Part shown: positions 11,746 to 60,254 of the stretch, in pieces
How positions within the stretch are numbered: the stretch's first letter is position 1
Layout of the letters: each line of letters starts with the position of its first letter
DNA from: Schmidtea polychroa
Lineage: Eukaryota
Length of the DNA stretch: 64,000 bases
NCBI GenBank assembly: GCA_044892525.1
Contig: CM097885.1
Span: 62,001-126,000 of the forward strand
Direction: 5' to 3'
Notes under the pieces: model-generated
The model's database searches: none
Told to the model about the DNA's origin: nothing
What the model saw: the letters and a program-made list of their open reading frames with translations, nothing else
Made by a program: the position numbers and the translations under genes

Positions 11746-11776
<31 letters not shown>

Positions 11777-23830: not shown

Positions 23831-23853
23831 AAACTTTTAATTTAACTTATATA

Positions 23854-30108: not shown

Positions 30109-30156
<48 letters not shown>

Positions 30157-33100
30157 CATTTAAATTTTCATTATAAATTACATTTCTCAAAAAAGTTGGT
30201 GGTTATTCAATCTTTTGATAATAAAATTAAAAATCTTACTTTAATTTACTTATTACATTACTTATTTAAAAATTATTACTTTAATTAAATTCTTTAAAAA
30301 TTATTACTTTAATTTACTTATTTAACTTTAATTTAATTTTTTAGAACATTGATTACTTATTTTTAAAATTTGGACCTTAATTAACTTTAATTTAATTTTT
30401 TAACTTTAATTTACTTATCCTTAATTTACCTATTTATGCTTTATTACTTAATTTTACACCATAATTTACTAAACAACTAATTATAACCCTTATTTTCATA
30501 TTTAACCAATAATTTCATGTGGTCATCTGGTTGTAAGTGTTTGGTATCTAGTTGACAGTACTAGGTATCTTGTACTTGGTTGTTAGTACTTGGTTGATAA
30601 TGCTTAGTGTCTGGTTGTATGTACTTGGTATCTAGTTGTTAGTAACTAGTTGTAGGTAATTAATGCTTAGTAGTTGGTAACTGGTTGTTAGTATCTAGTT
30701 GTAGGTGGTAGCTAGTTGGTTGTAGGTACTTAGTAGTTGGTTGATAATGCTTAGTACTTGGTAGGTGGTTGTTAGTTGGTTGTAGGTACTTAGTAGTTGG
30801 TAATTAATGCTTAGTACCTGGTTGATGTTGGTTGTAGGTACTTAGTAGTTGGTAGCTAGTTGGTTGCTATCAGGTAACTAGTTGTTAGTAACTAGTTGTA
30901 GGTATCTGGTTGTTAATACATGTTCGTAATTTACTGGTACTTGGTATCTAGTTGTTAGTTGTTAGCGGGTTGTTAGTAACTAGGTATCTAGTTGTTAGTA
31001 CTTGGTTGATAATGCTTAGTACCTGGTTGATGTTGGTTGTTAGTACTTAGTAGTTGGTAGCTAGTTGTTAGTAACTAGTTGTAAGTACTTGGTATCTGGT
31101 TGTTAGTTGTTATCTGGTTGTGAGTAGTTGGTATCGGGTTGTTAGCTGGTTGATAGTACTTGGTATCTGGTATTTAGTTGTAGGTACTTGGTTGTTTGAG
31201 AGTTTTTTAGTACGTGGTATCTAGTTGTAGGTACTTGGTATCAGGTAACTGGTTGTTAGTATCTAGTTGTAAGTACTTGGTAGTTGGTTGTTAGTTGTTG
31301 GTATCAGGTTGTAAGCTGGTTGATAGTACTTGGTATCTGGTTGTTAGTTGTTAGCGGGTTGTTAGTAACTAGGTATCTAGTTGTTAGTACTTGGTTGATA
31401 ATGCTTAGTACCTGGTTGATGTTGGTAGTTAGTACTTAGTAGTTGGTAGCTAGTTGTTAGTAACTAGTTGTAAGTACTTGGTATCTGGTTGTTAGTTGTT
31501 ATCTGGTTGTGAGTAGTTGGTATCAGGTTGTTAGCTGGTTGATAGTACTTGGTATCTGGTAATTAGTTGTAGGTACTTGGTTGTTTGAGAGTTATTTAGT
31601 ACGTGGTATCTAGTTGTAGGTACTTAGTATCAGGTAACTGGTTGTTAGTATCTAGTTGTAAGTACTTGGTAGTTGGTTGTTAGTTGTTGGTATCAGGTTG
31701 TAAGCTGGTTGATAGTACTTGGTATCTGGTAATTAGTTGTAAGTACTTGGTTGTTTGAGAGTTATTTAGTACGTGTTATCTAGTTGTTAGCTGGTTGTAG
31801 CTAGTTAATGGGTAGGTGGTTGTTAGTAGTTGGTATCAGGTAACTAGTTGTAGGTATCTAGTTGTAGGTATCTGGTATCAGGTAACTGGTTGTTAGTAAC
31901 TAGTTGTAGGTATCTGGTTGTTAATACATGTTCATAAGTTACTGGTTGTTGGTACTAAGTTGTTGGTTTGTTGTTGAATTATTATTAAAATTTGTCTTTG
32001 AAAAATATTTCATAAAAATTTTCATTAAAAATTATCTTAAAAATTTCCATCTAAAATTATCATTGAAAAATATTTCATAAAAATTTCCATCTAAAATTAT
32101 CATTGAAAAATATTTCATAAAAATTTCCATTAAAAATTACTTAAAAAATTATTTCATAAAAATTTCCATTAAAAATTACCTAAAAAAATATTTCATAAAA
32201 ATTTCCATTAAAAATTACCTAAAAAAATATTTCATAAAAATTTCCATTAAAAATTACTTAAAAAAAATATTTCATAAAAATTTCCATTAAAAAATTTCAA
32301 TTCTCAAACACCTTCAACTTTTTGTTAATAAATTTTAAAATCTTACTTTAATTTACTTATTACATTACTTTAATTTACTTATTTAAAAATTATTACTTTA
32401 ATTTACTTATTTAAAATTTTTTACCATTGATTACTTAATTTAAAAATTTGGACCATTATTTACTGTAATTTAATTTTTAAGAACTTAAATTTACTTTAAT
32501 TCAAAAATTTGGACCATTATTTACTTTAATTGAAAAATCTGGACCATAATTTACTGTAATTTAATATTTTAGAACCATAATTTACTTTAATTTAATTTTT
32601 AGAACCATTATTTACTGTAATTTAATTTTTTAGGACCATTATTACCTTATTTGAAAATTTGAGCCATAATTTACTTTAATTTAATTTTTTAGAACCATTA
32701 TTTACTTTAATTTAAAAATTTGAGCCATAATTTACTGTAATTTAATTTTTTAGGACCATAATTACCTTATTTGAAAAATTTGAACCATAATTTACTTTAA
32801 TTGAAAAATTTGGACCATAATTTACTGTAATTTAAAAATCTTAGTCCATAATTTACTGTAATTCAATTTTTAGACCCATAATTTACTGTAATTTTAAAAA
32901 ATTTACCACGTTTTTTAGTGTAGACCACCTTTGTCTATTGAAATTCTCAGGACCAAGGAGACCCACCTTAATTGACCTAGAAAAATCCATGCTTTTTTAG
33001 TGATAGTCGGATTTTTGTATTGAAAATATCCTGAGACCTTAAATTACCATGCTTTTTTAGTGTAGACCAGCTTTTTGTATTGAAAATATCCTGAGACCTT

Positions 33101-33700
33101 AAATTACCATGCTTTTTTAGTGTAGACCACCTATTTCTCAGGACCAAGGAGACTCACCTCACTATAGTGTGAAAAATTCCATGCTTTTTAGTGATAGTCG
33201 GATTTTTGTATTGAAAATCCCAGGACCATCGAGACCCCCTCACTATAGTGTGAAAAATTCCATGCTTTTTTAGTGGTAGTCGGATTTTTGTATTGAAAAT
33301 CCCAGGACCATCGAGACCCCCTCACTATAGTCTGAAAATTCTATGCTTTTTTATTGATAGTTATTGATAATTTTTTGTATTGAAAATCCCAGGACCATCG
33401 AGACCCCCTCACTATAGTCTGAAAATTCTATGCTTTTTTATTGATAGTCGGATTTTTGTATTGAAAAAAATTTTTTGTATTGAAAATCCCAGGACCATCG
33501 AGACCCCCTCACTATAGTGTGATAAAAAAAAAATTTGGACCAAAAATCCCTGAAAGCAAAAAAATGAGTTGGGAACAATTGCGTAATAAAAATTTGGGAA
33601 CAAACCCCCCCCCCCGGGGGGGGTAATTGTTCCCGTAGGCTACTATCTACCTACTATTAATTTCATCAATAAATAGTCACACATTAACAACTTATTTTAT

Positions 33701-33774
33701 ATTGAGTATAGCTTAGTGGTAATAGCACTCGACTGCATTGCCAATACCAATGGGTTCAAATCTCATTTCGGTCA
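33701..33774 (+). ncRNA. tRNA-like Pol III unit 2 (second copy 50117-50190)
   Basis: A box TAGCTTAGTGG, T arm ATGGG-TTCAAAT-CTCAT, ends can pair with G-U wobbles, followed by a T8 run. Confidence 0.55.
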
Positions 33775-33944
33775 TTTTTTTTCAAATTTTTTTTTAACGA
33801 AATATTGATCAGCATACTCGATTTAGTACTTGTACAAATTTTTAAGGAGATTGGTCAACGGCAACTCTTGGAAATTTAAGATCAAAAACGTTTTAACTTA
33901 AGCTACCAAAAATTAATATATCCAATAAAAAAATATTTATAAAA

Positions 33945-34214
33945 ATGGATGAGTTAAAAGAAAGAATGAGAAATGAATTGAATGAAGTTAAACATAAGAG
34001 AATGAAAAGAAGAGAAGAAGAACCATTAGAATACATCTAAGAGTTGATGGTAGATAATGAAAAGTATCGACATTTTTATATGAAGGCTGTAGATGTTGCT
34101 GATATAAGATTGAAGAAAATGAAACAATTACAGGAAAGAGTTAAAGAACTTGAATCGATTATTTATAGTCTAAAAAATAACAAAAATCCAATCCTAGATA
34201 GCGCAGTGGGCTAG
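33945..34214 (+). pseudogene. Small charged coiled-coil-like ORF with an internal stop (second copy from 50361)
   Basis: MDELKERMRNELNEVKHKRMKRREEEPLEYI*ELMVDNEKYRHFYMKAVDVADIRLKKMKQLQERVKELESII; TAA at 34038-34040. Confidence 0.45.
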
Positions 34215-34263
34215 ACCGGCACCGTGGTTCAAATGGATAGCGGTTCAAATCCTAACTGTGGTT
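34191..34263 (+). ncRNA. tRNA-like Pol III unit 3 (second copy 50607-50679)
   Basis: A box TAGCGCAGTGG at 34199, B box GGTTCAAATCC at 34242, T-rich tail. Confidence 0.55.
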
Positions 34264-34430
34264 AGTTTATTTTTCAACATAAAATAATATTAAAAATTTG
34301 AAAATAATAGTGTGGGTATCTTAGATTTATATTTTATTTTATTTATTTTTATTTTATTTTATTTTATTTTATTTATTTTATTTATTATTTTATTTTTTAA
34401 ACATAAATATGAAAAAATAAATATTGAAAC

Positions 34431-34504
34431 GGGTGATGGTGGCGAACCGGTAATTATCGCCACCTGTCTTTCGAACACCCCCGGATCGATCCCGGTAATG
34501 TGCA
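34431..34504 (+). ncRNA. tRNA-like Pol III unit 4 (second copy 50847-50920)
   Basis: A-box-like TGGCGAACCGG within a GGTGGCGA/TCGCCACC stem; T arm CCGG-ATCGATC-CCGG; weak terminator. Confidence 0.45.
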
Positions 34505-34925
34505 CATTTATTTCTCAGTTGTTTTCGGACCTCTTTCGGATTCGCTTTCGAATTCATTTGTACTTTCGAGCAGCACGCTTAAAACGCCGTTGAAATCGAC
34601 TTCGTGAGCGAGAAGCGAATAATAAGGTGTGCTGCTATTATCGGATTGATTCTGATGTATGAGTCTGGCCAGCTTGTATATTGGAAGAGATTCGATAAAC
34701 GAAAGAGGTTGATAAATAAAAAAAATGATCCGGATCAAAAAAAACTGTTCAGAAGACAGTGAAAAAAAAAAAATACCACTGTCCCCACAGAGCAGTTTTA
34801 CTATTTTTCATTTATTTTTTAATTTATATAATTTAAAATCAATAATCTGATAAAGATCAAATAGCCCTCTACCTTTTTCATAATGCCATTTTCTTTTCTA
34901 TTCTCTTTTTAGTTTGAAGCTTTTG

Positions 34926-37900
34926 AGTAGATAGTAGATAGTAGCCTACGGGAACAATTACCCCCCCCCGGGGGGGGGAGGGTTTGTTCCCAAATTTTTA
35001 TTACGCAATTGTTCCCAACTCATTTTTTTGCTTTCAGGGATTTTGGTCCAAATTTTTTTTTTATCACACTATAGTGAAGGGGTCTCGATGGTCCTGGGAT
35101 TTTCAATACAAAAAATTTTTTTCAATACAAAAATCCGACTATCAATAAAAAAGCATAGAATTTTCAGACTATAGTGAGGGGGTCTCGATGGTCCTGGGAT
35201 TTTCAATACAAAAAATTTTTTTCAATACAAAAATCCGACTATCAATAAAAAAGCATAGAATTTTCAGACTATAGTGAGGGGGTCTCGATGGTCCTGGGAT
35301 TTTCAATACAAAAATCCGACTACCACTAAAAAAGCATGGAATTTTTCACACTATAGTGAGGGGGTCTCGATGGTCCTGGGATTTTCAATACAAAAATCCG
35401 ACTATCACTAAAAAAGCATGGAATTTTTCACACTATAGTGAGGTGAGTCTCCTTGGTCCTGAGAAATAGGTGGTCTACACTAAAAAAGCATGGTAATTTA
35501 AGGTCTCAGGATATTTTCAATACAAAAAGCTGGTCTACACTAAAAAAGCATGGTAATTTAAGGTCTCAGGATATTTTCAATACAAAAATCCGACTATCAC
35601 TAAAAAAGCATGGATTTTTCTAGGTCAATTAAGGTGGGTCTCCTTGGTCCTGAGAATTTCAATAGACAAAGGTGGTCTACACTAAAAAACGTGGTAAATT
35701 TTTTAAAATTACAGTAAATTATGGGTCTAAAAATTGAATTACAGTAAATTATGGACTAAGATTTTTAAATTACAGTAAATTATGGTCCAAATTTTTCAAT
35801 TAAAGTAAATTATGGTTCAAATTTTTCAAATAAGGTAATTATGGTCCTAAAAAATTAAATAACAGTAAATTATGGCTCAAATTTTTAAATTAAATTAAAT
35901 AATGGTTCTAAAAAATTAAATTAAAGTAAATTATGGCTCAAATTTTCAAATAAGGTAATAATGGTCCTAAAAAATTAAATTACAGTAAATAATGGTTCTA
36001 AAAATTAAATTAAAGTAAATTATGGTTCTAAAATATTAAATTACAGTAAATTATGGTCCAGATTTTTCAATTAAAGTAAATAATGGTCCAAATTTTTGAA
36101 TTAAAGTAAATTTAAGTTCTTAAAAATTAAATTACAGTAAATAATGGTCCAAATTTTTAAATTAAGTAATCAATGGTAAAAAATTTTAAATAAGTAAATT
36201 AAAGTAATAATTTTTAAATAAGTAAATTAAAGTAATGTAATAAGTAAATTAAAGTAAGATTTTAAAATTTATTAACAAAAAGTTGAAGGTGTTTGAGAAT
36301 TGAAATTTTTTAATGGAAATTTTTATGAAATATTTTTTTAAGTAATTTTTAATGGAAATTTTTATGAAATATTTTTTTAGGTAATTTTTAATGGAAATTT
36401 TTATGAAATATTTTTTTAGGTAATTTTTAATGGAAATTTTTATGAAATAATTTTTTAAGTAATTTTTAATGGAAATTTTTATGAAATATTTTTCAATGAT
36501 AATTTTAGATGGAAACTTTTATGAAATATTTTTCAATGATAATTTTAGATGGAAATTTTTAAGATAATTTTTAATGAAAATTTTTATGAAATATTTTTCA
36601 AAGACAAATTTTAATAATAATTCAACAACAAACCAACAACTTAGTACCAACAACCAGTAACTTATGAACATGTATTAACAACCAGATACCTACAACTAGT
36701 TACTAACAACCAGTTACCTGATACCAGATACCTACAACTAGATACCTACAACTAGTTACCTGATACCAACTACTAACAACCACCTACCCATTAACTAGCT
36801 ACAACCAGCTAACAACTAGACACCACGTACTAAATAACTCTCAAACAACCAAGTACTTACAACTAATTACCAGATACCAAGTACTATCAACCAGCTTACA
36901 ACCTGATACCAACAACTAACAACCAACTACCAAGTACTTACAACTAGATACTAACAACCAGTTACCTGATACCAAGTACCTACAATTAGATACCACGTAC
37001 TAAAAAACTCTCATATAACCAAGTACCTACAACTAATTACCAGATACCAAGTACTATCTACCAGCTAACAACCTGATACCAACTACTCACAACCAGATAA
37101 CAACTAACAACCAGATACCAAGTACTTACAACTAGTTACTAACAACTAGCTACCAACTACTAAGTACTAACAACCAACATAAACCAGGTACTAAGCATTA
37201 TCAACCAAGTACTAACAACTAGATACCTAGTTACTAACAACCCGCTAACAACTAACAACTAGATACCAAGTACCAGTAAATTACGAACATGTATTAACAA
37301 CCAGATACCTACAACTAGTTACCTGATAGCAACCAACTAGCTTCCAACTACTAAGTACCTACAACCAACATCAACCAGGTACTAAGCATTAATTACCAAC
37401 TACTAAGTACCTACAACCAACTAACAACCACCTACCAAGTACTAAGCATTATCAACCAACTACTAAGTACCTACAACCAACTAGCTACCACCTACAACTA
37501 GATACTAACAACCAGTTACCAACTACTAAGCATTAATTACCTACAACTAGTTACTAACAACTAGATACCAAGTACATACAACCAGACACTAAGCATTATC
37601 AACCAAGTACTAACAACCAAGTACAAGATACCTAGTACTGTCAACTAGATACCAAACACTTACAACCAGATGACCACATGAAATTATTGGTTAAATATGA
37701 AAATAAGGGTTATAATTAGTTGTTTAGTAAATTATGGTGTAAAATTAAGTAATAAAGCATAAATAGGTAAATTAAGGATAAGTAAATTAAAGTTAAAAAA
37801 TTAAATTAAAGTTAATTAAGGTCCAAATTTTAAAAATAAGTAATCAATATTCTAAAAAATTAAATTAAAGTTAAATAAGTAAATTAAAGTAATAATTTTT

Positions 37901-38011
37901 AAATAAGTAATGTAATAAGTAAATTAAAGTAAGATTTTTAATTTTATTATCAAAAGATTGAATAACCACCAACTTTTTTGAGAAATGTAATTTATAATGA
38001 AAATTTAAATG

Positions 38012-38065
<54 letters not shown>

Positions 38066-41000
38066 TAATAATAATTCAACAGTTACCAACAATCGGTTAC
38101 TGATTATTTTTTAACTAGGTGCTAACAAATACTTACAACTAGATACCACGTACTAACTAACTCTCAAACAACCAGATACTTACAACTAACTACTAAATAT
38201 TCTTCACTGTATTTTATGAAATGCTTTTTAAATTAATATTTTTTATACAGCTTCTATAATAATTTTAATTACAATCAGTAGAAAAACCTTTTCAAAATGT
38301 CTAAATTTAACAAAAATGTTGATTTTCATCAAAAAACCACAACTCAACCACTTTAAAACACCACGTGGAATTCAAAATAATTACAATGAAAGACTAATGA
38401 ATTCTAATTTACAAAACATTCTTCTTTTAAATGATAACTACTGACTTATTATTGCAAAGTAAAAATCACATTCAATAAATACTTATTATTGATCAGTTTT
38501 ATTATATATACTCTGAGTTTATCCGACAGGATGTTTTGACCCCCTAAGGGTACAGGTCGTAAGGGTATTAGTCGTAAGGGTACTGGTCGTAAAGGTACTA
38601 GTTGTAGGGGTATTGGTAACACTTAACCACAACCTACCCATTAACTAGCTACTAAGTACTAACCACTAGGTTTCAAACAACAACTACTAACAACCACCAT
38701 CAAAACCCATCGAGAAATTAACAAATATCAACCTACAACTATATAACAATCAGTAAACAACACTGTACCAACTACCAAATACAAGAAACCAACAACTTAG
38801 TACCAACAATCAACTAACAACACATAAAAATAATAGCAATTAAATACAAAATATTCTTCATCGCATACACTATTTTCTTATCAAAATCTAAAAAGTCAAT
38901 CAGATACCAACTACCAAGTACCAAGTACTAACAACCAACTACCTAGAACCAACAACTATGTACTAACAAATTGATCTTTAAAAGCAAATACTCTTCACTT
39001 GAAAAATTGGATGAAAAATTATTTGAACTCAAGGCATCAATAACTTGGTAAAAATTGATTAAATAATTGTAAAAATTTAAATTATTCAAAATAAATATCA
39101 TAAAAATTTAATTAATGGACAAGAAAAAATTCTAATCATCCAATAAATAAAAAAAAATGCTGATCATTCAAGTTGAATCAACTAAGATAATAAATTAATA
39201 AGATAAGATCTAGTAGATAATTGATTAAGATTGAATAAATTAATTTAAATAAAATTAAATTTAATTATTTTTGTAAAAGTAATACATGTACTCAAATTGA
39301 TTGACTGATTTCTCAATATATTCAAAAAAAATCAGTATAAATTCATTACAATTATCAAAGTCAGCAATCTACAATAAAAATAATTATCATAAAATTCCAA
39401 AAGAGACTAGATAACTAATGATAACATCTAATAAACCAGTAAATTTATTTAAATGACAATAATTGGTATATCCTAGTGAATTCTCCAATTTCTCATTTCC
39501 TCCCAAATATATCAATATGTAAAGATTAGTATTGTAATGATAAATACTTGTTAAAGATCATATATTTACCTCAAACTAACAAGATTCCTTAAAATCCCTT
39601 AAATGACTATATTTCTACCCTTAATTCATATTATTACAAATATTTCACTAAAATCATCTAAAAAGCATCAAATTTCCCTGAAATAACTCTATCTTTTAAG
39701 ATTGATATTTTAATGATAAGTACTTGTTAAAGATCATATATTCCCCTCAGACTAATAAGATTGCTTAAACTCCCCTTTAAATGACTATAATTCTAACTTT
39801 AATTCCTATTATCATACATGTTTCACTATTGATAAAACCGGTTATAATTAACTTTTTGTTAATCACTGTACTCGAAATTTAAAATAAATATAACTGACTA
39901 GGTCCCATTAAAAGATTAAATTTATCCATTCAATAAAATATATTTCTTCAAATGATCATTTTTACCAATATTCAACCGATTTAATTACTAATTAAAATCA
40001 AGATTTCTTCCAATAAAGATCAATTTTATTTAGTCGATGTTTTAAGTCCATATTTCTAAACTTTTGTCATTCTCCGCCTAAATAAAGATAAAAATAAATT
40101 AAAGTTGATATCAATCCCAATTATCTGTAAAGATTTCATTGTCAAAACCAAGTAAATCGATCATTATCCCTACTTAATAAAACATTGTTCTAAATTAATT
40201 TACTGTGCATTAATCACAACCTAATAAAACGATATAATTATTATTGATTCATAACTGACTAATGTATTGCAATTTCCTTAAAAAACATTGATATTTTACC
40301 AACATCACCCTTAAAAAATCATATATTCCCATCGAAACCCTTCCCTCATTAAAAGCAACCGACTATATCTCCCTTACAATAATATATTCCCATCTTAACC
40401 CATCTCACATTAAATCTAACCGACTATATCCCCTTAAAAGATCATATTTTCCCCATCTTAACCGATCTCTCATTAAATCTAACCAACAATATCCCATCTT
40501 AACCGATCTCTCATTAAATCTAACCGACTATATCCCTTTAAAAATCATATATTCCCATCTCTCATTAAATCTAATCGATAATATCCCATCTTATCCGATC
40601 TCTCAGCAAATATTTCTACCCTTTTAAACATCTATCCGATTATATCCCTTAATTTCCCTAAAGATTCCACCCACTTGAACCCTTTAATATATATCAATAC
40701 TCTTAATATCCTTAGAGAACTTCAAAAAGTATGAATTTTCATAAATTGTTAAAGACACCAGGCATTCTTCCATTGAAATAATTTAGAAGCTAAATAATAA
40801 GAGCCCACTAAAAGATCAAAATTTACTAAAATTTTCTACAAATATTTACCATCAAATACTGGAGATGATATATATTGATTGATCATAATTCTTCATCGAT
40901 TCAACCAATCATTTTCAAGCAATAACAGCAAACTAAATTTCTGTATATCCTACAATAATTATCAAGTAAATTTAAAGTCATTGATAAATATTCTTAGAAA

Positions 41001-44000
41001 ATTATTGAAAAAAATTATCTAGTCAAATATATTACAAAGTTATCATCAAAAATTTATTCTATCACTTAATTATTAACCTAATTGTCAATGAAATTAATTT
41101 TTATTTAAAAACTATTCAATAAAATACCACTAATTATCAAGAAATTAACTAAATTTATCAATTAAATTTATCACCATTAAAACTTTTAATCAGTCAACAT
41201 GAAATTCTTAGAAAATTATTCAATATCCTCATAAAAATTTATCCTATCACTTGATTATTGTACAAACTTTAATTATTAACCTCATTAAAATAAATTTTTA
41301 TTTAAAATTAAAAATACATCCAATTATCAAGAAATTAATTAAATTTATCTTAGAACTAACTTTAAATTATTAAATATTCATTCAATAAACATGAAATTTG
41401 CAAAAATGTTAGAAATCCATGAAAATGATAGATATCTACAAAAATTACGCATATTCACAAAAAATTACGGAAATTCATGAAAATAATGGAAATTCACAAA
41501 ATTCATAAAAATTCACAAAAATGATAGAAATTCACAAGAATGATAAAAATCCACAAAAAATTCATAAAAATTCACAAAAATTATAGAAATTTACTTGAAT
41601 ATTTACTAAAACCATCAACTCTAAAAATTATCAATGAATGCCTTAAACATCAAATTTGCCTAAATAATCATTCAAATAAAAGCATTAAATGATCAGTACC
41701 CTTGCGACATGTTGAATGTGAGTAGTACCCTTGTGAGCAATACCCATAGGGGGACAGAATATTTTGTCGGATAAACTCAGAGTATATATTAATTAACTCA
41801 TTCTTCATTGAATCAGTAAAATTATCATAAATTTCGATAAAAATTCTAAAGTGGTAAGCAATGTAAAGAGAAATATTCTTTAAACTTTGATAAAATTAAC
41901 AATGAAGGTGGTAAGAATCTTCATTAAAGTGAGGAAATTACTCGATGATAAATTCAAATGGGTGAAAATAATTGGTAGAATAATTCATTAATGGATCATT
42001 GAATGGGCATAGATAAGAAGAAAGTTGATAAGAATGGAAATATATTAATTGAATTTATTTAAAATTCATAAAAACTTTTAAAACAAATATTTGTGGGGAA
42101 GTGAATAATTAATCAAAATCGGCGAAATATAATTGATTAAATATCCGGAGTGGGGGGGGGGTCATAAGTGAATAATTAATGGAAAATTGAGGGGATACAA
42201 ATGATTAAAAAGTGGAAAATCGATGGATATTAGTGATTAATTAGTGAAAAATAGAGAATTGGTGGAATATAAGTGGAGAGGATATGTAATTTAAACTAGT
42301 TTATTACATAACAAGCCGTGACTATTTTATTACATAACAAGCTGTGAATGATATTTTATTGAGAATTATTGATTAGGTTTTTTTTTTTTAATGTTTGAAT
42401 AAGTACTTTAATACCTTAATAATTTAAATGTTTTGATTTACACTAAATAATTTCTAAATCAATTACCCTTTTCAATCAAAATAGGTTAATATTCAAATAT
42501 AAGTCTTCGAAAATATAAATTTTATAAGTAAAGCTTTTTAAATAAATTTAAATAACAAATTAATCTATTACCAGTTACATAATTTTAAACTTTTTTATGG
42601 AATAAGACAAAAATTTTGTTGTATAAGTCCTTTAATATTGTAATAATTATTTATTAATAAATTTATTATTTTACGTTAAATATTTCAAAAACAATTATCA
42701 TATTATTAATTATATTACCCTTTTTAATCAAAATAAGATAAATATTCAAATAGATGACTTTTATAAAATACAATTAAAATTAAATACTTTACACTAAATT
42801 TAAAAATATAAATTTTATAAGTAAATGTAAATAAGAAATTAGTGTATTAGCTGTTATAGACTTTTTAAACTTATTGATTAGGCAGTAGAAAGTTACTTTT
42901 TTTTTTCAAAAAGTCCTTTAATATTGTATTCTATTTATTATTAAATTTACTATTTTACACTAAAAAATTTCAATTTAGAAAACAAACATCATAATATGAA
43001 ACTTCAATCAAAATAAGCTAATACTCAAATATATGTCTTATAAAATACAATCAAAATTAAATACTTCACAAAATTAAAGTAAAGTTTTTTTAATTCTCAG
43101 ATAAATGTTAACAAGATATTAATTTATTTTTCATTATAGACTTTTTATACTTATTATTGGTATTAAACAATAGAATGATATTGAAAATATATACAATTTA
43201 AAAATACAATTAAAATTAAAATTATATACTAGGTAAAATGTTGGTAAAATATCATTCACAGCTTGTTATGTAATAAAATAGTCACGGCTTGTTATGTAAT
43301 AAACTAGTTTAAATTACATATCCTCTCCACTTATATTCCACCAATTCTCTATTTTTCACTAATTAATCACTAATATCCATCGATTTTCCACTATTTAATC
43401 ATTTGTATCCCCTCAATTTTCCATTAATTATTCACTTATGACCCCCCCCCCCACTCCGGATATTTAATCAATTATATTTCGCCGATTTTGATTAATTATT
43501 CACTTCCCCACAAATATTTGTTTTAAAAGTTTTTATGAATTTTAAATAAATTCAATTAATATATTTCCATTCTTATCAACTTTCTTCTTATCTATGCCCA
43601 TTCAATGATCCATTAATGAATTATTCTACCAATTATTTTCACCCATTTGAATTTATCATCGAGTAATTTCCTCACTTTAATGAAGATTCTTACCACCTTC
43701 ATTGTTAATTTTATCAAAGTTTAAAGAATATTTCTCTTTACATTGCTTACCACTTTAGAATTTTTATCGAAATTTATGATAATTTTACTGATTCAATGAA
43801 GAATGAGTTAATTAATATATACTCTGAGTTTATCCGACAAAATATTCTGTCCCCCTATGGGTATTGCTCACAAGGGTACTACTCACATTCAACATGTCGC
43901 AAGGGTACTGATCATTTAATGCTTTTATTTGAATGATTATTTAGGCAAATTTGATGTTTAAGGCATTCATTGATAATTTTTAGAGTTGATGGTTTTAGTA

Positions 44001-47000
44001 AATATTCAAGTAAATTTCTATAATTTTTGTGAATTTTTATGAATTTTTTGTGGATTTTTATCATTCTTGTGAATTTCTATCATTTTTGTGAATTTTTATG
44101 AATTTTGTGAATTTCCATTATTTTCATGAATTTCCGTAATTTTTTGTGAATATGCGTAATTTTTGTAGATATCTATCATTTTCATGGATTTCTAACATTT
44201 TTGCAAATTTCATGTTTATTGAATGAATATTTAATAATTTAAAGTTAGTTCTAAGATAAATTTAATTAATTTCTTGATAATTGGATGTATTTTTAATTTT
44301 AAATAAAAATTTATTTTAATGAGGTTAATAATTAAAGTTTGTACAATAATCAAGTGATAGGATAAATTTTTATGAGGATATTGAATAATTTTCTAAGAAT
44401 TTCATGTTGACTGATTAAAAGTTTTAATGGTGATAAATTTAATTGATAAATTTAGTTAATTTCTTGATAATTAGTGGTATTTTATTGAATAGTTTTTAAA
44501 TAAAAATTAATTTCATTGACAATTAGGTTAATAATTAAGTGATAGAATAAATTTTTGATGATAACTTTGTAATATATTTGACTAGATAATTTTTTTCAAT
44601 AATTTTCTAAGAATATTTATCAATGACTTTAAATTTACTTGATAATTATTGTAGGATATACAGAAATTTAGTTTGCTGTTATTGCTTGAAAATGATTGGT
44701 TGAATCGATGAAGAATTATGATCAATCAATATATATCATCTCCAGTATTTGATGGTAAATATTTGTAGAAAATTTTAGTAAATTTTGATCTTTTAGTGGG
44801 CTCTTATTATTTAGCTTCTAAATTATTTCAATGGAAGAATGCCTGGTGTCTTTAACAATTTATGAAAATTCATACTTTTTGAAGTTCTCTAAGGATATTA
44901 AGAATATTGATATATATTAAAGGGTTCAAGTGGGTGGAATCTTTAGGGAAATTAAGGGATATAATCGGATAGATGTTTAAAAGGGTAGAAATATTTGCTG
45001 AGAGATCGGATAAGATGGGATATTATCGATTAGATTTAATGAGAGATGGGAATATATGATTTTTAAAGGGATATAGTCGGTTAGATTTAATGAGAGATCG
45101 GTTAAGATGGGATATTGTTGGTTAGATTTAATGAGAGATCGGTTAAGATGGGGAAAATATGATCTTTTAAGGGGATATAGTCGGTTAGATTTAATGTGAG
45201 ATGGGTTAAGATGGGAATATATTATTGTAAGGGAGATATAGTCGGTTGCTTTTAATGAGGGAAGGGTTTCGATGGGAATATATGATTTTTTAAGGGTGAT
45301 GTTGGTAAAATATCAATGTTTTTTAAGGAAATTGCAATACATTAGTCAGTTATGAATCAATAATAATTATATCGTTTTATTAGGTTGTGATTAATGCACA
45401 GTAAATTAATTTAGAACAATGTTTTATTAAGTAGGGATAATGATCGATTTACTTGGTTTTGACAATGAAATTTTTACAGATAATTGGGATTGATATCAAC
45501 CTTAATTTATTTTTATCTTTATTTAGGCGGAGAATGACAAAAGTTTAGAAATATGGACTTAAAACATCGACTAAATAAAATTGATCTTTATTGGAAGAAA
45601 TCTTGATTTTAATTAGTAATTAAATCGGTTGAATATTGGTAAAAATGATCATTTGAAGAAATATATTTTATTGAATGGATAAATTTAATCTTTTAATGGG
45701 ACCTAGTCAGTTATATTTATTTTAAATTTCGAGTACAGTGATTAACAAAAAGTTAATTATAACCGGTTTTATCAATAGTGAAACATGTATGATAATAGGA
45801 ATTAAAGTTAGAATTATAGTCATTTAAAGGGGAGTTTAAGCAATCTTATTAGTCTGAGGGGAATATATGATCTTTAACAAGTACTTATCATTAAAATATC
45901 AATCTTAAAAGATAGAGTTATTTCAGGGAAATTTGATGCTTTTTAGATGATTTTAGTGAAATATTTGTAATAATATGAATTAAGGGTAGAAATATAGTCA
46001 TTTAAGGGATTTTAAGGAATCTTGTTAGTTTGAGGTAAATATATGATCTTTAACAAGTATTTATCATTACAATACTAATCTTTACATATTGATATATTTG
46101 GGAGGAAATGAGAAATTGGAGAATTCACTAGGATATACCAATTATTGTCATTTAAATAAATTTACTGGTTTATTAGATGTTATCATTAGTTATCTAGTCT
46201 CTTTTGGAATTTTATGATAATTATTTTTATTGTAGATTGCTGACTTTGATAATTGTAATGAATTTATACTGATTTTTTTTGAATATATTGAGAAATCAGT
46301 CAATCAATTTGAGTACATGTATTACTTTTACAAAAATAATTAAATTTAATTTTATTTAAATTAATTTATTCAATCTTAATCAATTATCTACTAGATCTTA
46401 TCTTATTAATTTATTATCTTAGTTGATTCAACTTGAATGATCAGCATTTTTTTTTATTTATTGGATGATTAGAATTTTTTCTTGTCCATTAATTAAATTT
46501 TTATGATATTTATTTTGAATAATTTAAATTTTTACAATTATTTAATCAATTTTTACCAAGTTATTGATGCCTTGAGTTCAAATAATTTTTCATCCAATTT
46601 TTCAAGTGAAGAGTATTTGCTTTTAAAGATCAATTTGTTAGTACATAGTTGTTGGTTCTAGGTAGTTGGTTGTTAGTACTTGGTACTTGGTAGTTGGTAT
46701 CTGATTGACTTTTTAGATTTTGATAAGAAAATAGTGTATGCGATGAAGAATATTTTGTATTTAATTGCTATTATTTTTATGTGTTGTTAGTTGATTGTTG
46801 GTACTAAGTTGTTGGTTTCTTGTATTTGGTAGTTGGTACAGTGTTGTTTACTGATTGTTATATAGTTGTAGGTTGATATTTGTTAATTTCTCGATGGGTT
46901 TTGATGGTGGTTGTTAGTAGTTGTTGTTTGAAATCTAGTGGTTAGTACTTAGTAGCTAGTTAATGGGTAGGTTGTGGTTAAGTGTTACCAATACCCCTAC

Positions 47001-47538
47001 GACTAGTACCTTTACGACCAGTACCCTTACGACTAATACCCTTACGACCTGTACCCTTAGGGGGTCAAAACATCCTGTCGGATAAACTCAGAGTATATAT
47101 AATAAAACTGATCAATAATAAGTATTTATTGAATGTGATTTTTACTTTGCAATAATAAGTCAGTAGTTATCATTTAAAAGAAGAATGTTTTGTAAATTAG
47201 AATTCATTAGTCTTTCATTGTAATTATTTTGAATTCCACGTGGTGTTTTAAAGTGGTTGAGTTGTGGTTTTTTGATGAAAATCAACATTTTTGTTAAATT
47301 TAGACATTTTGAAAAGGTTTTTCTACTGATTGTAATTAAAATTATTATAGAAGCTGTATAAAAAATATTAATTTAAAAAGCATTTCATAAAATACAGTGA
47401 AGAATATTTAGTAGTTAGTTGTAAGTATCTGGTTGTTTGAGAGTTAGTTAGTACGTGGTATCTAGTTGTAAGTATTTGTTAGCACCTAGTTAAAAAATAA
47501 TCAGTAACCGATTGTTGGTAACTGTTGAATTATTATTA

Positions 47539-47574
<36 letters not shown>

Positions 47575-50071
47575 CATTTGTTAGTAACTAGTTGTAGGTA
47601 TCTGGTTGTTAATACATGTTCGTAATTTACTGGTACTTGGTATCTAGTTGTTAGTTGTTAGCGGGTTGTTAGTAACTAGGTATCTAGTTGTTAGTACTTG
47701 GTTGATAATGCTTAGTACCTGGTTGATGTTGGTTGTTAGTACTTAGTAGTTGGTAGCTAGTTGTTAGTAACTAGTTGTAAGTACTTGGTATCTGGTTGTT
47801 AGTTGTTATCTGGTTGTGAGTAGTTGGTATCAGGTTGTTAGCTGGTTGATAGTACTTGGTATCTGGTAATTAGTTGTAGGTACTTGGTTGTTTGAGAGTT
47901 TTTTAGTACGTGGTATCTAGTTGTAGGTACTTGGTATCAGGTAACTGGTTGTTAGTATCTAGTTGTAAGTACTTGGTAGTTGGTTGTTAGTTGTTGGTAT
48001 CAGGTTGTAAGCTGGTTGATAGTACTTGGTATCTGGTTGTTAGTTGTTAGCGGGTTGTTAGTAACTAGGTATCTAGTTGTTAGTACTTGGTTGATAATGC
48101 TTAGTACCTGGTTGATGTTGGTTGTTAGTACATAGTAGTTGGTAGCTAGTTGTTAGTAACTAGTTGTAAGTACTTGGTATCTGGTTGTTAGTTGTTATCT
48201 GGTTGTGAGTAGTTGGTATCAGGTTGTTAGCTGGTTGATAGTACTTGGTATCTGGTAATTAGTTGTAGGTACTTGGTTGTTTGAGAGTTATTTAGTACGT
48301 GGTATCTAGTTGTAGGTACTTGGTATCAGGTAACTGGTTGTTAGTATCTAGTTGTAAGTACTTGGTAGTTTGTTGTTAGTTGTTGGTATCAGGTTGTAAG
48401 CTGGTTGATAGTACTTGGTATCTGGTAATTAGTTGTAAGTACTTGGTTGTTTGAGAGTTATTTAGTACGTGTTATCTAGTTGTTAGCTGGTTGTAGCTAG
48501 TTAATGGGTAGGTGGTTGTTAGTAGTTGGTATCAGGTAACTAGTTGTAGGTATCTAGTTGTAGGTATCTGGTATCAGGTAACTGGTTGTTAGTAACTAGT
48601 TATAGGTATCTGGTTGTTAATACATGTTCATAAGTTACTGGTTGTTGGTACTAAGTTGTTGGTTTGTTGTTGAATTATTATTAAAATTTGTCTTTGAAAA
48701 ATATTTCATAAAAATTTTCATTAAAAATTATCTTAAAAATTTCCATCTAAAATTATCATTGAAAAATATTTCATAAAAATTTCCATCTAAAATTATCATT
48801 GAAAAATATTTCATAAAAATTTCCATTAAAAATTACTTAAAAAATTATTTCATAAAAATTTCCATTAAAAATTACCTAAAAAAATATTTCATAAAAATTT
48901 CCATTAAAAATTACCTAAAAAAATATTTCATAAAAATTTCCATTAAAAATTACTTAAAAAAATATTTCATAAAAATTTCCATTAAAAAATTTCAATTCTC
49001 AAACACCTTCAACTTTTTGTTAATAAATTTTAAAATCTTACTTTAATTTACTTATTACATTACTTTAATTTACTTATTTAAAAATTATTACTTTAATTTA
49101 CTTATTTAAAATTTTTTACCATTGATTACTTAATTTAAAAATTTGGACCATTATTTACTGTAATTTAATTTTTAAGAACTTAAATTTACTTTAATTCAAA
49201 AATTTGGACCATTATTTACTTTAATTGAAAAATCTGGACCATAATTTACTGTAATTTAATATTTTAGAACCATAATTTACTTTAATTTAATTTTTAGAAC
49301 CATTATTTACTGTAATTTAATTTTTTAGGACCATTATTACCTTATTTGAAAATTTGAGCCATAATTTACTTTAATTTAATTTTTTAGAACCATTATTTAC
49401 TTTAATTTAAAAATTTGAGCCATAATTTACTGTAATTTAATTTTTTAGGACCATAATTACCTTATTTGAAAAATTTGAACCATAATTTACTTTAATTGAA
49501 AAATTTGGACCATAATTTACTGTAATTTAAAAATCTTAGTCCATAATTTACTGTAATTCAATTTTTAGACCCATAATTTACTGTAATTTTAAAAAATTTA
49601 CCACGTTTTTTAGTGTAGACCACCTTTTTCTATTGAAATTCTCAGGACCAAGGAGACCCACCTTAATTGACCTAGAAAAATCCATGCTTTTTTAGTGATA
49701 GTCGGATTTTTGTATTGAAAATCCCAGGACCATCGAGACCCCCTCACTATAGTGTGAAAAATTCCATGCTTTTTTAGTGGTAGTCGGATTTTTGTATTGA
49801 AAATCCCAGGACCATCGAGACCCCCTCACTATAGTCTGAAAATTCTATGCTTTTTTATTGATAGTCGGATTTTTGTATTGAAAAAAATTTTTTGTATTGA
49901 AAATCCCAGGACCATCGAGACCCCCTCACTATAGTGTGATAAAAAAAAAATTTGGACCAAAAATCCCTGAAAGCAAAAAAATGAGTTGGGAACAATTGCG
50001 TAATAAAAATTTGGGAACAAACCCCCCCCCGGGGGGGGGTAATTGTTCCCGTAGGCTACTATCTACCTACT
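34926..50071. mobile_element. Foldback element B, copy 2: non-coding, arms 34926-42358 and 43245-50071, 886-bp AT-rich spacer
   Basis: AGTAG.../...CTACT ends. The arms are reverse complements, with deletions in the right arm near 47578 and 49722. No credible ORF. Confidence 0.9.
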
Positions 50072-51179
50072 ATTAATTTCATCAATAAATAGTCACACAT
50101 TAACAACTTATTTTATATTGAGTATAGCTTAGTGGTAATAGCACTCGACTGCATTGCCAATACCAATGGGTTCAAATCTCATTTCGGTTATTTTTTTTCA
50201 AATTTTTTTTTAACGAAATATTGAACAGCATACTCGATTTAGTACTTGTACAAATTTTTAAGGAGATTGGTCAACGGCAACTCTTGGAAATTTAAGATCA
50301 AAAACGTTTTAACTTAAGCTACCAAAAATTAATATATCCAATAAAAAAATATTTATAAAAATGGATGAGTTAAAAGAAAGAATGAGAAATGAATTGAATG
50401 AAGTTAAACATAAGAGAATGAAAAGAAGAGAAGAAGAACCATTAGAATACATCTAAGAGTTGATGGTAGATAATGAAAAGTATCGACATTTTTATATGAA
50501 GGCTGTAGATGTTGCTGATATAAGATTGAAGAAAATGAAACAATTACAGGAAAGAGTTAAAGAACTTGAATCGATTATTTATAGTCTAAAAAATAACAAA
50601 AATCCAATCCTAGATAGCGCAGTGGGCTAGACCGGCACAGTGGTTCAAATGGATAGCGGTTCAAATCCTAACTGTGGTTAGTTTATTTTTCAACATAAAA
50701 TAATATTAAAAATTTGAAAATAATAGTGTGGGTATCTTAGATTTATATTTTATTTTATTTATTTTTATTTTATTTTATTTTATTTTATTTATTTTATTTA
50801 TTATTTTATTTTTTAAACATAAATATGAAAAAATAAATATTGAAACGGGTGATGGTGGCGAACCGGTAATTATCGCCACCTGTCTTTCGAACACCCCCGG
50901 ATCGATCCCGGTAATGTGCACATTTATTTCTCAGTTGTTTTCGGACCTCTTTCGGATTCGCTTTCGAATTCATTTGTACTTTCGAGCAGCACGCTTAAAA
51001 CGCCGTTGAAATCGACTTCGTGAGCGAGAAGCGAATAATAAGGTGTGCTGCTATTATCGGATTGATTCTGATGTATGAGTCTGGCCAGCTTGTATATTGG
51101 AAGAGATTCGATAAACGAAAGAGGTTGATAAATAAAAAAAATGATCCGGATCAAAAAAAACTGTTCAGAAGACAGTGAA

Positions 51180-51517
51180 AAAAAAAAAATACCACTGTCC
51201 CCACAGAGCAGTTTTACTATTTTTCATTTATTTTTTAATTTATATAATTTAAAATCAATAATCTGATAAAGATCAAATAGCCCTCTACCTTTTTCATAAT
51301 GCCATTTTCTTTTCTATTCTCTTTTTAGTTTGAAGCTTTTGAGTTTGAGGCTTTAAAGATTAAAACAGTTAGAGTCATTAAGGGTGGTTGTTTTCAAAAT
51401 ATAGGGTTAAAATACTATAAAAGTATAAGTTTTAGGTTATTTTTCTAATAGCTTAAGTGATTTGAAGGCATGTTTTTGTTGGGGGGCTGTTTTGGTTGGG
51501 TATATAACCACACTACT
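51180..51517. repeat. Right terminal inverted repeat of Polinton A (at least ~340 bp)
   Basis: Slightly diverged counterpart at 58475-58810; both end in CCACACTACT. Confidence 0.8.
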
Positions 51518-52197
51518 CATTATATAAGGTTTATATTTTCAAATTATGTAAATAAAAGTGTATTTTTATCAAAAAGGTAAGTTAAAGCTTATAATTTTAA
51601 ATAAAGTAAATTAAAGAATATGTTTGGTAAACAATGGCTATATTTTAAAATTAAGTAAATTAAGGGATAAATCTATAAATTAAGTATATAACTGGCTATA
51701 TTTTAAAATAAAGTAAACAAGGGTTACTTTTTCAAAATTAAGGGATAAATTTACTAATATGGTAAATTAAAGGCTAAATATTTGAATTAAGTAAGGTAAG
51801 GGTTATATTTTAAAATTAAGAAACGTTTAGGCTGTATTTTAAACCGGAGGTTCGTGCTCCCGTGGGTCACTGACTACGTACTCTGTAATTTCCAAATTTT
51901 ACATTTTGAATTTCTAATGAGTTTTTAGTTTGATTTTAGTTGAACTTCATTTGATCTTAGACCATTTATTGTTAGAAGAACCCTCAATGTTCATAAAAAT
52001 AATTAGGTTTCGGGACTTTCATTATCGTAAAACATAGTTGTTCGTAAATATTTAGTCATTTGTGGAAGTAAAATAAATTTAAAGTAAAATTTAAAAAATG
52101 ACTAAAATAACCAATAAAATCATTGTTAAATATAATTAATTACATATTTATTACTATTTATACTATATAAAATCAAATTCTTAACCAAACGATAACA

Positions 52198-52776
52198 ATG
52201 ACAACCAGAAAACCTTCAGGATCAAAATCTGCATATATTTGCTTTATGCAGTCATTCAGAGAAAAATATAAAATCAAATACCCAAATATCAAACCAAATT
52301 TTGTTGAAATTTCGAAGCTCGCTGCAGAAAAGTGGAAGAAAAAACCAGAAATTAAAAAGGCGAAGTTCCGTGAGTTGGCAGTAATTGACAAGAAACGTCA
52401 CGATGACGAAATGGTTAATTACAAACCGAGTGAAGCAGACATTAAAAAGAAGGAAGAGAAGAAAAAAGCAAAACGAGCAGCAAAAGATCCAAGAAAACCA
52501 AAACAGCCAGTGAGCGCTTTTCTGTTTTTCTGTGCTAAATTTAGAACTTCCGTTAAAAAGTCAAAACCAAATTTTAAAATTGTTGATGTTTCCAGAGAAC
52601 TGGGTAAAATGTGGAAAGAATGCAAGGAAAGAGATGAATATGAAAATATGGCTAAAATAGCAAAGGCAGAATATGAAAAAGAAATGAAAATATATAATGA
52701 CATTATAAAAAGAGATTTAATTAAAATTGAAGATTGTGTAAAAAAGGAATTTGTAGAGAATACAATTTCTGATTGA
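52198..52776 (+). CDS. HMGB-like protein, two HMG boxes, no acidic tail, intronless
   Basis: KPSGSKSAYICF...EISKLAAEKWK and KDPRKPKQPVSAFLFF...VSRELGKMWK. Confidence 0.92.
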   Translation: MTTRKPSGSKSAYICFMQSFREKYKIKYPNIKPNFVEISKLAAEKWKKKPEIKKAKFRELAVIDKKRHDDEMVNYKPSEADIKKKEEKKKAKRAAKDPRKPKQPVSAFLFFCAKFRTSVKKSKPNFKIVDVSRELGKMWKECKERDEYENMAKIAKAEYEKEMKIYNDIIKRDLIKIEDCVKKEFVENTISD

Positions 52777-54338
52777 AAGTTTAATTAATTTATTTGTATT
52801 TATATGTTATTATATTTATAATAATAGTATAAAACTAAATATGATAAAATTATGTAATGTACTATGTATTGTTAAAACCATTTTAATGTTTTTATGTAAT
52901 GCGTAATTTTGTTTTCTTGTATATTTAAATTATTGTATTTTTATCAAATATAATAAAAAATAACAAATAAATCACTTTCTAATTTTAGACGTTATGTAAT
53001 TTGTTTACAGTATGATAGTATTATGATTTGTTTTCCGTGTTAGGCAAATTAATTAATTATAAATGAATTTTCAAAATTACTCAAAATTGCAAACATTATT
53101 TCAAAAGAAAAATGTTAGTTTCAATGTTATAATTATTAATATTTTCTCTCATTAATAAAAATAATAAAATTATTTTGAAAACAATTGCTATTTTCATTTA
53201 TATAAAACAGTAATTTTTTTAGTGTTTCACTTCAATATCAACTTTTCTTTCTTTATTGGATTTTGCTTGTTTTATTTTAAATTTATCTAAACTCTATTAC
53301 ATTGAATTTGTCTTGTCTTTTTTAACAATCAAAACAATGTTTTATTGTTGCTTAATTTGAGTTACTCAACTTTTTATGTATTCTTTCTGGCATATATATT
53401 TGTTAAGGAATAGGAATTTCGGTGAATATATAGAAGTTTTTGAAATTCACAAATTTTCGGAACTGCCTTTTTCAATGAATTTGAAATTCAGATACACCCC
53501 TATCAAGTGCTCCAGAAGCGTAATTGCTGTGCAATGAAAGATAAGAATGCTCAAGTGGGCCTAATGGTTTTTTTCTGACTATACTGAGGCGATCTCCTTG
53601 ATCTAAGGATTTTTTTCAAATTAAAATCCAATTATCTCTATCGTAGACTCAATTTAGTCATTATATAAGGTTTATATTTTCAAATTATGTAAATAAAAGT
53701 GTATTTTTATCAAAAAGGTAAGTTAAAGCTTATAATTTTAAATAAAGTAAATTAAAGAATATGTTTGGTAAACAATGGCTATATTTTAAAATTAAGTAAA
53801 TTAAGAGATAAATCTATAAATTAAGTATATAACTGGCTATATTTTAAAATAAAGTAAACAAGGGTTACTTTTTCAAAATTAAGGGATAAATTTACTAATA
53901 TGGTAAATTAAAGGCTAAATATTTGAATTAAGTAAGGTAAGGGTTATATTTTAAAATTAAGAAACGTTTAGGCTGTATTTTAAACCGGAGGTTCGTGCTC
54001 CCGTGGGTCACTGACTACGTACTCTGTAATTTCCAAATTTTACATTTTGAATTTCTAATGAGTTTTTAGTTTGATTTTAGTTGAACTTCATTTGATCTTA
54101 GACCATTTATTGTTAGAAGAACCCTCAATGTTCATAAAAATAATTAGGTTTCGGGACTTTCATTATCGTAAAACATAGTTGTTCGTAAATATTTAGTCAT
54201 TTGTGGAAGTAAAATAAATTTAAAGTAAAATTTAAAAAATGACTAAAATAACCAATAAAATCATTGTTAAATATAATTAATTACATATTTATTACTATTT
54301 ATACTATATAAAATCAAATTCTTAACCAAACGATAACA

Positions 54339-59875: not shown

Positions 59876-60254
<379 letters not shown>

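Follow-up and report, generated by a model that had tools for sequence, protein, structure and literature searches.

A gene-less 15-kb foldback element of Schmidtea polychroa with Polinton-type ends, probably dependent on resident Polintons

A 64-kb window of the Schmidtea polychroa genome (contig CM097885.1; G+C content 20-34%) harbors a large foldback element without genes, here called B. B lies together with a B-like sister element, A, in the right end region of M2, a copy of an autonomous Polinton/Maverick family designated M. Element A contains in turn a further element, P, which is a palindrome carrying two mirrored genes for a family-B DNA polymerase of the protein-primed kind (pPolB). 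Besides these elements, the window contains two copies (F1 and F2) of a piece of M2 subterminal sequence, one between A and B and the other following the right end of B, and the last part of M2 with its right terminus (Table 1). For comparison, the 781-Mb genome with its four chromosome-scale contigs (271.6, 189.7, 144.6 and 93.1 Mb) was searched.

Table 1. Elements, genes and structural features of the window (positions as numbered in the window; TSD, target-site duplication)
Feature	Position	Strand	Remarks
M2, right-hand gene block	1-6847	-	genes for A32-like ATPase, rve integrase and double-jelly-roll capsid protein
A32-like ATPase (M2)	3025-3855	+	Pfam Pox_A32
rve integrase (M2)	3867-4910	-	Pfam rve, 3.9e-12
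Double-jelly-roll capsid (M2)	5763-6596	-	Pfam DJR-like_dom
Sister element A, B-like foldback	6848-33655		26,808 bp; TSD ATTAAT; houses P plus a copied end of P (11292-12289)
Element P, nested in A	15640-28685		13-kb palindrome, two mirrored intact pPolB genes
pPolB genes of P	16456-19044; 25241-27829	-; +	Pfam DNA_pol_B_2, 3.3e-31
N-terminal exons of P pPolB	19318-19944; 24341-24967
F1, M2 subterminal region between A and B	33656-34925	+	1,270 bp
Element B, gene-less foldback	34926-50071		15,146 bp
B, left arm	34926-42358	+	7,433 bp; inner 4.3 kb 99.8-100% identical to right arm, outer part 89-94%
B, variant left terminus	34926-34946	+	AGTAGATAGTAGATAGTAGCC; family standard is AGTAGGTAGATAGTAGCC
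B, subterminal tandem repeats	35064-35613	+	100/82/60-bp units; mirrored at ~49592-49980
B, outer-arm minisatellite modules	35701-37600	+	30/61/120, 39/78 and 60 bp; mirrored in right arm with length differences
B, inner-arm modules	40308-41591	+	61 bp, 40308-40495; 58 bp, 41394-41591
B, spacer	42359-43244		886 bp; palindrome center, unique
B, right arm	43245-50071	-	6,827 bp; outer part 99.6-99.9% identical to right arm of A
B, terminal 100 nt	49972-50071	-	two local hairpins (nt 2-21; nt 22-59 with C8/G8 core)
B, standard right terminus	50049-50071	-	AGTAGGTAGATAGTAGCC, exact family 23-mer
F2, duplicate of F1 after the right end of B	50072-51341	+	3 mismatches in 1,269
M2, last 176 bp and right terminus	51342-51517	-	...CACACTACT

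As the original prediction had it, made from the letters of the window alone, B is a non-coding foldback of about 15 kb with arms built of several minisatellite modules. The inverted repeat accounts for ~94% of its length. An inverted-repeat search revealed 4,144 nt of 100% identity in the inner arms (38018-42161 and 43443-47586), a spacer-adjoining pair that is 100% identical over 207 nt with 886 nt between its halves (42152-42358 and 43245-43451), and an outer block of 1,701 nt at 99% identity (35573-37273 and 48022-49722). In the remainder of the outer 2-3 kb the arms are 89-94% alike and contain indels, which cause the arm length difference of 606 bp. Tandem units of 30 to 120 bp could be mapped along the arms: units of 100/82 bp (35064-35461) and 60 bp (35464-35613) near the end, units of 30/61/120 bp (35701-36194), 39/78 bp (36266-36572) and 60 bp (37374-37495) in the outer arm, and the two inner modules. 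A 14/21-bp array was observed in the arm of sister A. Furthermore, a 70-95-bp piece of the inner arm of B (41696-41793 and 43811-43908) recurs three times between ATT microsatellites at 59760-60323, with 85-93% identity.

B has no coding capacity, in agreement with the non-autonomous nature predicted for it. It possesses no open reading frame (ORF) of at least 70 aa starting with ATG in the standard code and no tRNA gene, and the region 33000-52000 gave no Rfam match at the gathering score. A tblastn search of B for decayed remnants of the neighboring Polinton genes, including the local pPolB genes and the rve integrase, returned only a short nucleotide repeat. The use of a ciliate genetic code was considered and rejected: the long frames obtained with translation table 6 are full of reassigned stops, and clean Pfam matches are obtained with the ORFs of the standard code.

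The termini of B, M and P (AGTAGGTAGATAGTA..., AGTAGTGTGG... and AGTAGTGAATAGTA..., respectively) all start with AGTAG, and the B family reads 5'-AGTAG...CTACT-3'. The AGTAG ends predicted for B are present on both sides in the window, the right one in its standard form and the left one as a variant with one surplus ATAGTAG unit in which GTAG is missing. The B terminus has 6 nt in common with that of M and ~12 of 17 nt with that of P; past these first ~6-17 bases nothing in B was seen to resemble M or P. An origin of B as a deletion derivative of an autonomous Polinton was rejected, as its interior is not collinear with M or P. The terminal 100 nt of B are predicted to fold as DNA with -21.5 kcal/mol (z -4.4); the hairpin is mirrored in the left arm at 34947-35000 and is deleted from the left end of A. 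Each of the 82-100-bp subterminal units contains TAGTGAGG (in one case TAGTGAAG). These units are found at 35072-35443 and 49742-49931 in B as well as at 6932-7221 and 33157-33514 in the arms of A, always in the same orientation relative to the end, and TAGTGAGG resembles the termini AGTAGTGAGG, AGTAGTGTGG and AGTAGTGAAT of other elements. It may thus represent a reiterated protein-binding site. The related pattern TAGTGRRK occurs 29 times in the window versus 13.1 ± 3.3 expected, an excess that is due to the tandem repeats and can serve only as a lead.

B is a member of a family of ~160 copies. The exact terminal 23-mer AGTAGGTAGATAGTAGCCYACGG is present 158 times in forward and 167 times in reverse orientation (325 ends), and a control with the reversed pattern gave no match in either orientation. 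The spacer was found at 40 places (the window's own included; 40 scored of 1,669 first-look candidates), each with 735 or more of the 886 bases matched at 89-100% identity. In all ten copies sampled with ~9.5 kb on either side, B-arm sequence lies inverted on both sides of the spacer. Perfect 6-bp TSDs were identified in 18 of 20 end pairs, i.e. in all three copies with both ends in range (TATGCT, TTCCTT, GTGGTT), in eight of ten pairs of 14.3-18.0 kb and in seven of seven short pairs of 8.0-13.4 kb. The flanks of the copies are unrelated except in a single recent segmental duplicate (L025/L027), and the family has inserted at many unrelated sites with 6-bp target duplications. No other transposase was seen in or beside the sampled B copies, although no dedicated search for one was made. 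These data bear out the independent 6-bp TSDs expected by the original prediction, and with them the Polinton-type ends: B does not occur only here, its copies did not reveal a transposase of their own, and the TSDs have the same length as those of M and P. Part of the spacer region is also contained in 13 public sequencing runs from six studies, none of them listed as RNA; the spacer or arm contigs obtained from four of these runs do not exceed ~220 nt and stem from many copies, and so they attest presence only and have no bearing on expression, ends or junctions.

Both resident Polinton families are well represented in the genome. The M terminus has 469 + 451 = 920 exact ends (control 0/0), corresponding to at least ~460 copies, and 6-bp TSDs were present in five of five pairs checked. 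By Pfam, M encodes DNA_pol_B_2, rve, Pox_A32 and DJR-like_dom proteins. Its integrase gene gave 117 matches at 99-100% identity, of which 116 are without stop, and is open in at least 116 copies. M is a very young, intact autonomous Polinton family of ~15.0 kb. P, with its own AGTAGTGAATAG ends (79 + 82 = 161 exact ends) and with TSDs of 6 bp in four of four pairs, is a polymerase-only, integrase-less Polinton derivative that forms a near-perfect palindrome of ~13.1 kb. All 53 scored matches to its pPolB gene are open, with 99-100% identity, mostly as minus/plus pairs 8-11 kb apart. A 208-aa ORF upstream of each P polymerase ORF is 51% identical to residues 52-220 of a 1,158-aa relative and represents the N-terminal part of the same polymerase; P therefore carries one gene, twice. 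At another locus (L032:2654 to L033:5173), P is found alone without B arms, with AGTAGTGAATAGTAAGG... ends and the TSD GTAGGT. The possibility that A is an autonomous form of B carrying pPolB was accordingly rejected, as P is a separate element. The pPolB gene is absent from B and present in P and in M (L036 4264-8529), and rve integrase is absent from B and present in M. Judged by these sequence features, B is a Polinton/Maverick-type element by its integration signature and not by its gene content.

The lengths of the elements were derived from paired ends at 100 of the 325 B places, 100 of the 920 M places and 100 of the 161 P places; unpaired ends were dropped, as was a composite P pair of 17,394 bp in the window. 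The median is 15,809 bp for B (31 pairs; interquartile range (IQR) 14,345-17,160 bp; coefficient of variation (CV) in the 12-19-kb class 0.091), 15,003 bp for M (34 pairs; 14,646-15,438 bp; 0.052) and 13,104 bp for P (42 pairs; 12,758-13,443 bp; 0.033). The M set includes a pair only 274 bp apart. Seven of the 31 B pairs are shorter than 13.5 kb, 19 measure 14.3-18.0 kb and five exceed 20 kb. TSD-flanked B copies range from 8.0 to 18.0 kb; as to the narrow length distribution proposed as a check, the spread of B is wide.

A and B are both inserted in the right end region of M2. A is flanked by ATTAAT on both sides, as had been noted for the sister copy, and this is a true duplication, because in the flank of L025/L027 this M sequence is continuous and ATTAAT is present only once. 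In contrast, window B has no TSD (CTTTTG on the left, ATTAAT on the right). Its left end interrupts the sequence GAAGCTTTTG^AGTTTGAGG, which is continuous at 51330-51350, at ~58620-58640 and in L036; to the right of B, ATTAAT and F2 follow, not the remainder of the interrupted sequence. The left arms of A and B are 98.4% identical (20 mismatches in 4,376 columns) and the right arms 99.6-99.9%, whereas left and right arms are only ~94% alike. These identities and the match of F1 with F2 identify A plus F and B plus F as sister units that arose by local duplication, with one boundary falling exactly on an element terminus. Window B thus appears to stem from a local duplication involving A rather than from a clean integration, which would explain the absence of a TSD of its own. 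As a possible route, the integrase may have joined one end of a free copy, and the other end would have been repaired off the resident sister arm, with F being copied along. After the duplication the interior of A was changed by the nesting of P and by the copying of sequence from arm to arm.

Nesting is not confined to A. B-type elements and P are nested in each other and in the M end region: a P end lies within the outer right arm of a second B copy (L021/L022), and B-type elements are found inside Polinton ends at two loci. In A, a 534-bp piece of arm sequence is directly repeated on either side of P (15120-15652 and 28686-29219), and P lacks the first A of its left end and has no 6-bp TSD, so that it does not represent a simple integration.

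The identity between the two arms varies from 75% to 99.9% across 11 B copies. In six of them the stretch adjoining the spacer is 99.5-99.9% identical (window B, L013/14, L023/24, L025/26, its segmental duplicate L027/28 (99.0%), and L029/30), and in four others the innermost ~900 bp are ~93% alike. If the spacer orientation is fixed, one inner-arm type lies upstream in two copies (L017/18 and L011/12) and downstream in two (L015/16 and L019/20); in the remaining copies the type is homogenized or ambiguous. In A, a tract of 3.65 kb (8637-12289) is the reverse complement of 27690-31351 at 99.2% identity; it crosses the arm/P junction and extends 1 kb into P. As the junction is inside this tract and, among 40 scored matches, is present in full length only at the window's two mirrored places, this insertion junction was copied from one arm to the other. 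Together with the switching of the inner-arm type, the tract demonstrates at the level of sequence an exchange between the arms, through conversion and inversion of the spacer, such as other long palindromes undergo.

We consider it probable (roughly 0.8) that B is a member of a gene-less, helper-dependent family of the Polinton/Maverick type, nearly all of whose length is terminal inverted repeat. As its ends are of the same kind and its footprints have the same 6 bp as those of the resident Polintons, B is most likely moved by their enzymes. Integration would proceed in trans through the activity of a resident rve integrase, and copying, likewise in trans, would be catalyzed by a protein-primed polymerase that initiates at the repeated motif of the terminus, AGTAG-GTAG-ATAGTAG. 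Where initiation is of the slide-back or jump-back type, as in phi29 and adenovirus, reiterated ends are the rule, and the left-end variant of window B is the kind of change that would be expected from such slipping. The foldback structure itself is directly visible in the sequence; a snap-back origin and mode of replication, as originally proposed, are conjectural. The palindrome probably arose as an inverted dimer or through copy-back of a half-length replicon, and its arms would have been kept alike by exchange. Because the B terminus is closer to that of P (~12 of 17 nt) than to that of M (6 nt), one may even speculate that B depends on a P-type polymerase and an M-type integrase.

Several observations weigh against this interpretation. 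Past AGTAG, the ends of B differ from those of M, and an action of the M (or any) integrase or polymerase on them is deduced from the termini and footprints. Subterminal signals common to B, M and P were not detected, the only matches being of low complexity. Neither a half-length precursor of B nor a direct trace of a copy-back or inverted-dimer origin was found, and any palindrome-forming event should be old, as the arms differ by 3-25% in many copies. The copies sampled, which leave aside five long pairs of 20-33 kb, yielded no autonomous element ending in the 18-23-nt terminus of B itself. A TSD of 6 bp is not unique to Polintons and occurs in a few other superfamilies as well. Two of the 20 B end pairs are without a perfect TSD; one of them has a 5-of-6 match in a microsatellite, and at the other locus the flanks are mutually reverse complementary. 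Finally, the end counts comprise exact matches only, and the lengths come from adjacent forward and reverse ends paired by eye among the first 100 listed places per pattern.

Alternatively, B could belong to another foldback superfamily similar to FB or Galileo and be moved by a transposase unrelated to Polintons, its AGTAG ends being coincidental. The 6-bp TSD, as just mentioned, would allow this, and B has no sequence in common with M or P past the terminal motif. However, FB and Galileo have TSDs of 9 bp and 7 bp, respectively, and transposases of the MULE or P type. Furthermore, AGTAG and the 6-bp TSD are common to three families in one genome, two of which possess Polinton genes, B-type elements and P are nested in each other and in the M end region, and the sampled B copies, in which no search was directed at this, are without sign of another transposase. 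Although long, internally repetitive inverted repeats are described as a hallmark of FB and Galileo (PMC3573991), we regard such an affiliation as improbable. Even less can be said for the palindrome being an artefact or a purely local chromosomal rearrangement without any element biology. True, window B has no TSD, possesses a variant left end and duplicates its sister together with the 1.27-kb flank, its inner arms are identical over 4,144 nt as in fold-back chimeras, and at L047/L048 the palindrome continues into the flanks. Yet the same architecture is present at ten of ten sampled loci, TSDs are found in 18 of 20 end pairs, spacer and arm sequences appear (as presence only) in public-run contigs from six studies, and arms that differ by 606 bp with outer parts only 89-94% alike are not expected of a chimeric read. 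At the family level an assembly artefact was rejected on account of the recurrent foldbacks, the 325 ends and the TSDs, and this explanation is hardly credible. A role of B as a brake, either as a defective-interfering decoy for polymerase and integrase or as the source of an inverted-repeat transcript feeding small-RNA silencing, would fit its lack of genes, its Polinton-type ends, its high copy number and the location of B-type elements inside Polinton ends at two loci, and a perfect 7-kb hairpin would yield double-stranded RNA if it were transcribed. This is very improbable, since the arms match no M or P sequence, so that small RNAs from B could not target Polintons, and since M and P are abundant and intact, with no effective brake visible.

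A further alternative has the length of B tuned to a capsid, as the original prediction had suggested. B and P would then be satellites packaged in M virions, and their inverted-dimer form and stuffer-like minisatellites would be explained by the packaging of near-helper lengths only. In its favor, three families of unrelated sequence have similar medians (that of P is 87% of M), M2 without its inserts measures 15,042 bp, and a near-complete palindrome is formed by each of two families that are unrelated. For helper-dependent adenovirus vectors, rearrangement toward wild-type size is described when they fall short of ~75% of the genome length, and a 15-kb adenovirus vector was packaged as direct and inverted dimers (PMC4189039). 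However, the spread of B (IQR 14.3-17.2 kb) is about twice as wide as that of M, and all seven short pairs have perfect TSDs, although deletion after insertion would likewise preserve them. TSDs are likewise found in copies as long as 18.0 kb (120% of M), the descendants of a single ~15-kb master would give the same mode without selection, and the 274-bp M-end pair implies that small elements with such ends occur. The terminal motifs of B and M had no exact match each in a viral-contig collection, where a blank is not evidence of absence. We therefore consider packaging in M virions an unlikely explanation of the form of B and P, and a capsid-tuned length of B doubtful. The same reserve applies to the picture of a three-tier Polinton community, in which the autonomous M (15.0 kb) would be accompanied by P as a polymerase-only inverted dimer (13.1 kb) and by B as a gene-less, minisatellite-padded inverted dimer (~15.8 kb), both satellites being shaped by packaging in the M capsid; it is a tentative idea with the odds against it. 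If it were true, B and P would be natural counterparts of the 'gutless' helper-dependent adenovirus vectors, and Polinton virions would actually be made in the animal germ line.

M2 extends from L036:3246 (left end) to position 51517 of the window and has inverted ends of ~1.2 kb (8% per end). Its polymerase is encoded upstream of the window (L036 4264-8529; ORFs of 1,015 and 381 aa, 25-28% identical to that of P). The sequences flanking M2, ATTCAA to the left and CATTAT to the right, do not form a TSD, although five of five other M copies have one. An M-type gene block, inverted, is located 16.5 kb upstream (L035:1-3531, 99.2% identical to positions 1-3519 of the window), and between the two blocks lie genes for a 937-aa polymerase of a second type with an N-terminal zinc finger and for a DUF1759 gag-like retrotransposon protein. 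The chromosome end is a dense nest of such elements. Outside the right end of M2, at 51518-58474, there are three and a quarter tandem copies of a 2,141-bp unit that are 99.6-99.7% alike and encode an intact 192-aa HMG-box gene; beyond this array lies another M right end, solitary and ~270 bp long (58540-58810), and the array may represent a host gene captured or amplified between Polinton ends. The minus strand at 60536-63999 encodes a polymerase of a third lineage (in ORFs of 687, 153 and 227 aa; ~26% identical to the M2 polymerase and visibly closer to that of P), which is probably the end of a further Polinton running off the window. Two tiny elements with Polinton-type ends, a unit of 247 bp that has AGTAGTGAGG ends but lacks a TSD (L036:35-281) and the pair of exact M ends 274 bp apart (G000:C1:9385422-9385695), may be MITE-like derivatives (MITE, miniature inverted-repeat transposable element). 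At L047/L048 (G000:C1:39330587-39344901), the 20 bases outside each end of a 14.3-kb B-type copy are mutually reverse complementary, so that host DNA forms part of the palindrome; 5.2 kb beyond there is a third end.

B resembles known Polintons/Mavericks in its 5'-AG...CT-3' ends, 6-bp TSD, inverted terminal repeats, length of ~15 kb and co-residence with autonomous copies; for comparison, a lizard Polinton of 17,487 bp has a 584-bp terminal inverted repeat and a 6-bp TSD (PMC3014272). It differs in being gene-less, in the share of the inverted repeat (~94% versus 8% per end in M) and in its arms, whose minisatellite modules are unrelated to the Polinton sequences seen here. With adenovirus, B would have in common replication from inverted terminal repeats by a family-B polymerase of the protein-primed type, and with the 'gutless' vectors and the subgenomic DNA of adenovirus particles the retention of only terminal cis elements around a non-coding stuffer body; the latter include half-size genomes packaged as inverted dimers near the helper length (PMC4189039). 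Unlike these laboratory or intracellular products, B is a chromosomal family spreading in the germ line and known from sequence alone. Tlr1 of Tetrahymena is similarly large, with long, complex inverted ends built of repeats. Although sometimes viewed as a non-autonomous polinton (PMC5499653), it possesses many genes, whereas B has none. The foldback feature of the Drosophila elements FB and Galileo, many copies of which are non-coding and vary in length via repeat number (PMC3573991), is found in B as well; its 6-bp TSDs and AGTAG ends set it apart from them. Like MITEs, B is presumably moved in trans via shared termini, with a body unrelated to the autonomous partner; but MITEs are typically shorter than 1 kb, and B, at 8-18 kb, is as large as its presumed helper. 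Some non-autonomous Polinton entries are listed in Repbase. In the literature searched, Polinton derivatives that are gene-less or of foldback form were not found described; this literature covered neither Repbase nor most subscription papers.

Polintons are widely held to be viruses, but their particles have hardly been seen and their non-autonomous derivatives are almost undescribed in the literature searched. A gene-less and a polymerase-only family beside the young, intact M family in one genome would represent a natural helper-satellite system with three rungs, and it is striking that the gene-less B is as long as its presumed helper M. The nested A/B/P/M locus records both the transfer of sequence between arms and a duplication bounded exactly by an element end. 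B, P and M make it possible to test which cis sequences are sufficient for Polinton integration and replication, as the three families agree in no more than their first ~6-17 bases. They also render testable whether a capsid constrains genome length and how long palindromes are made and homogenized in an animal genome.

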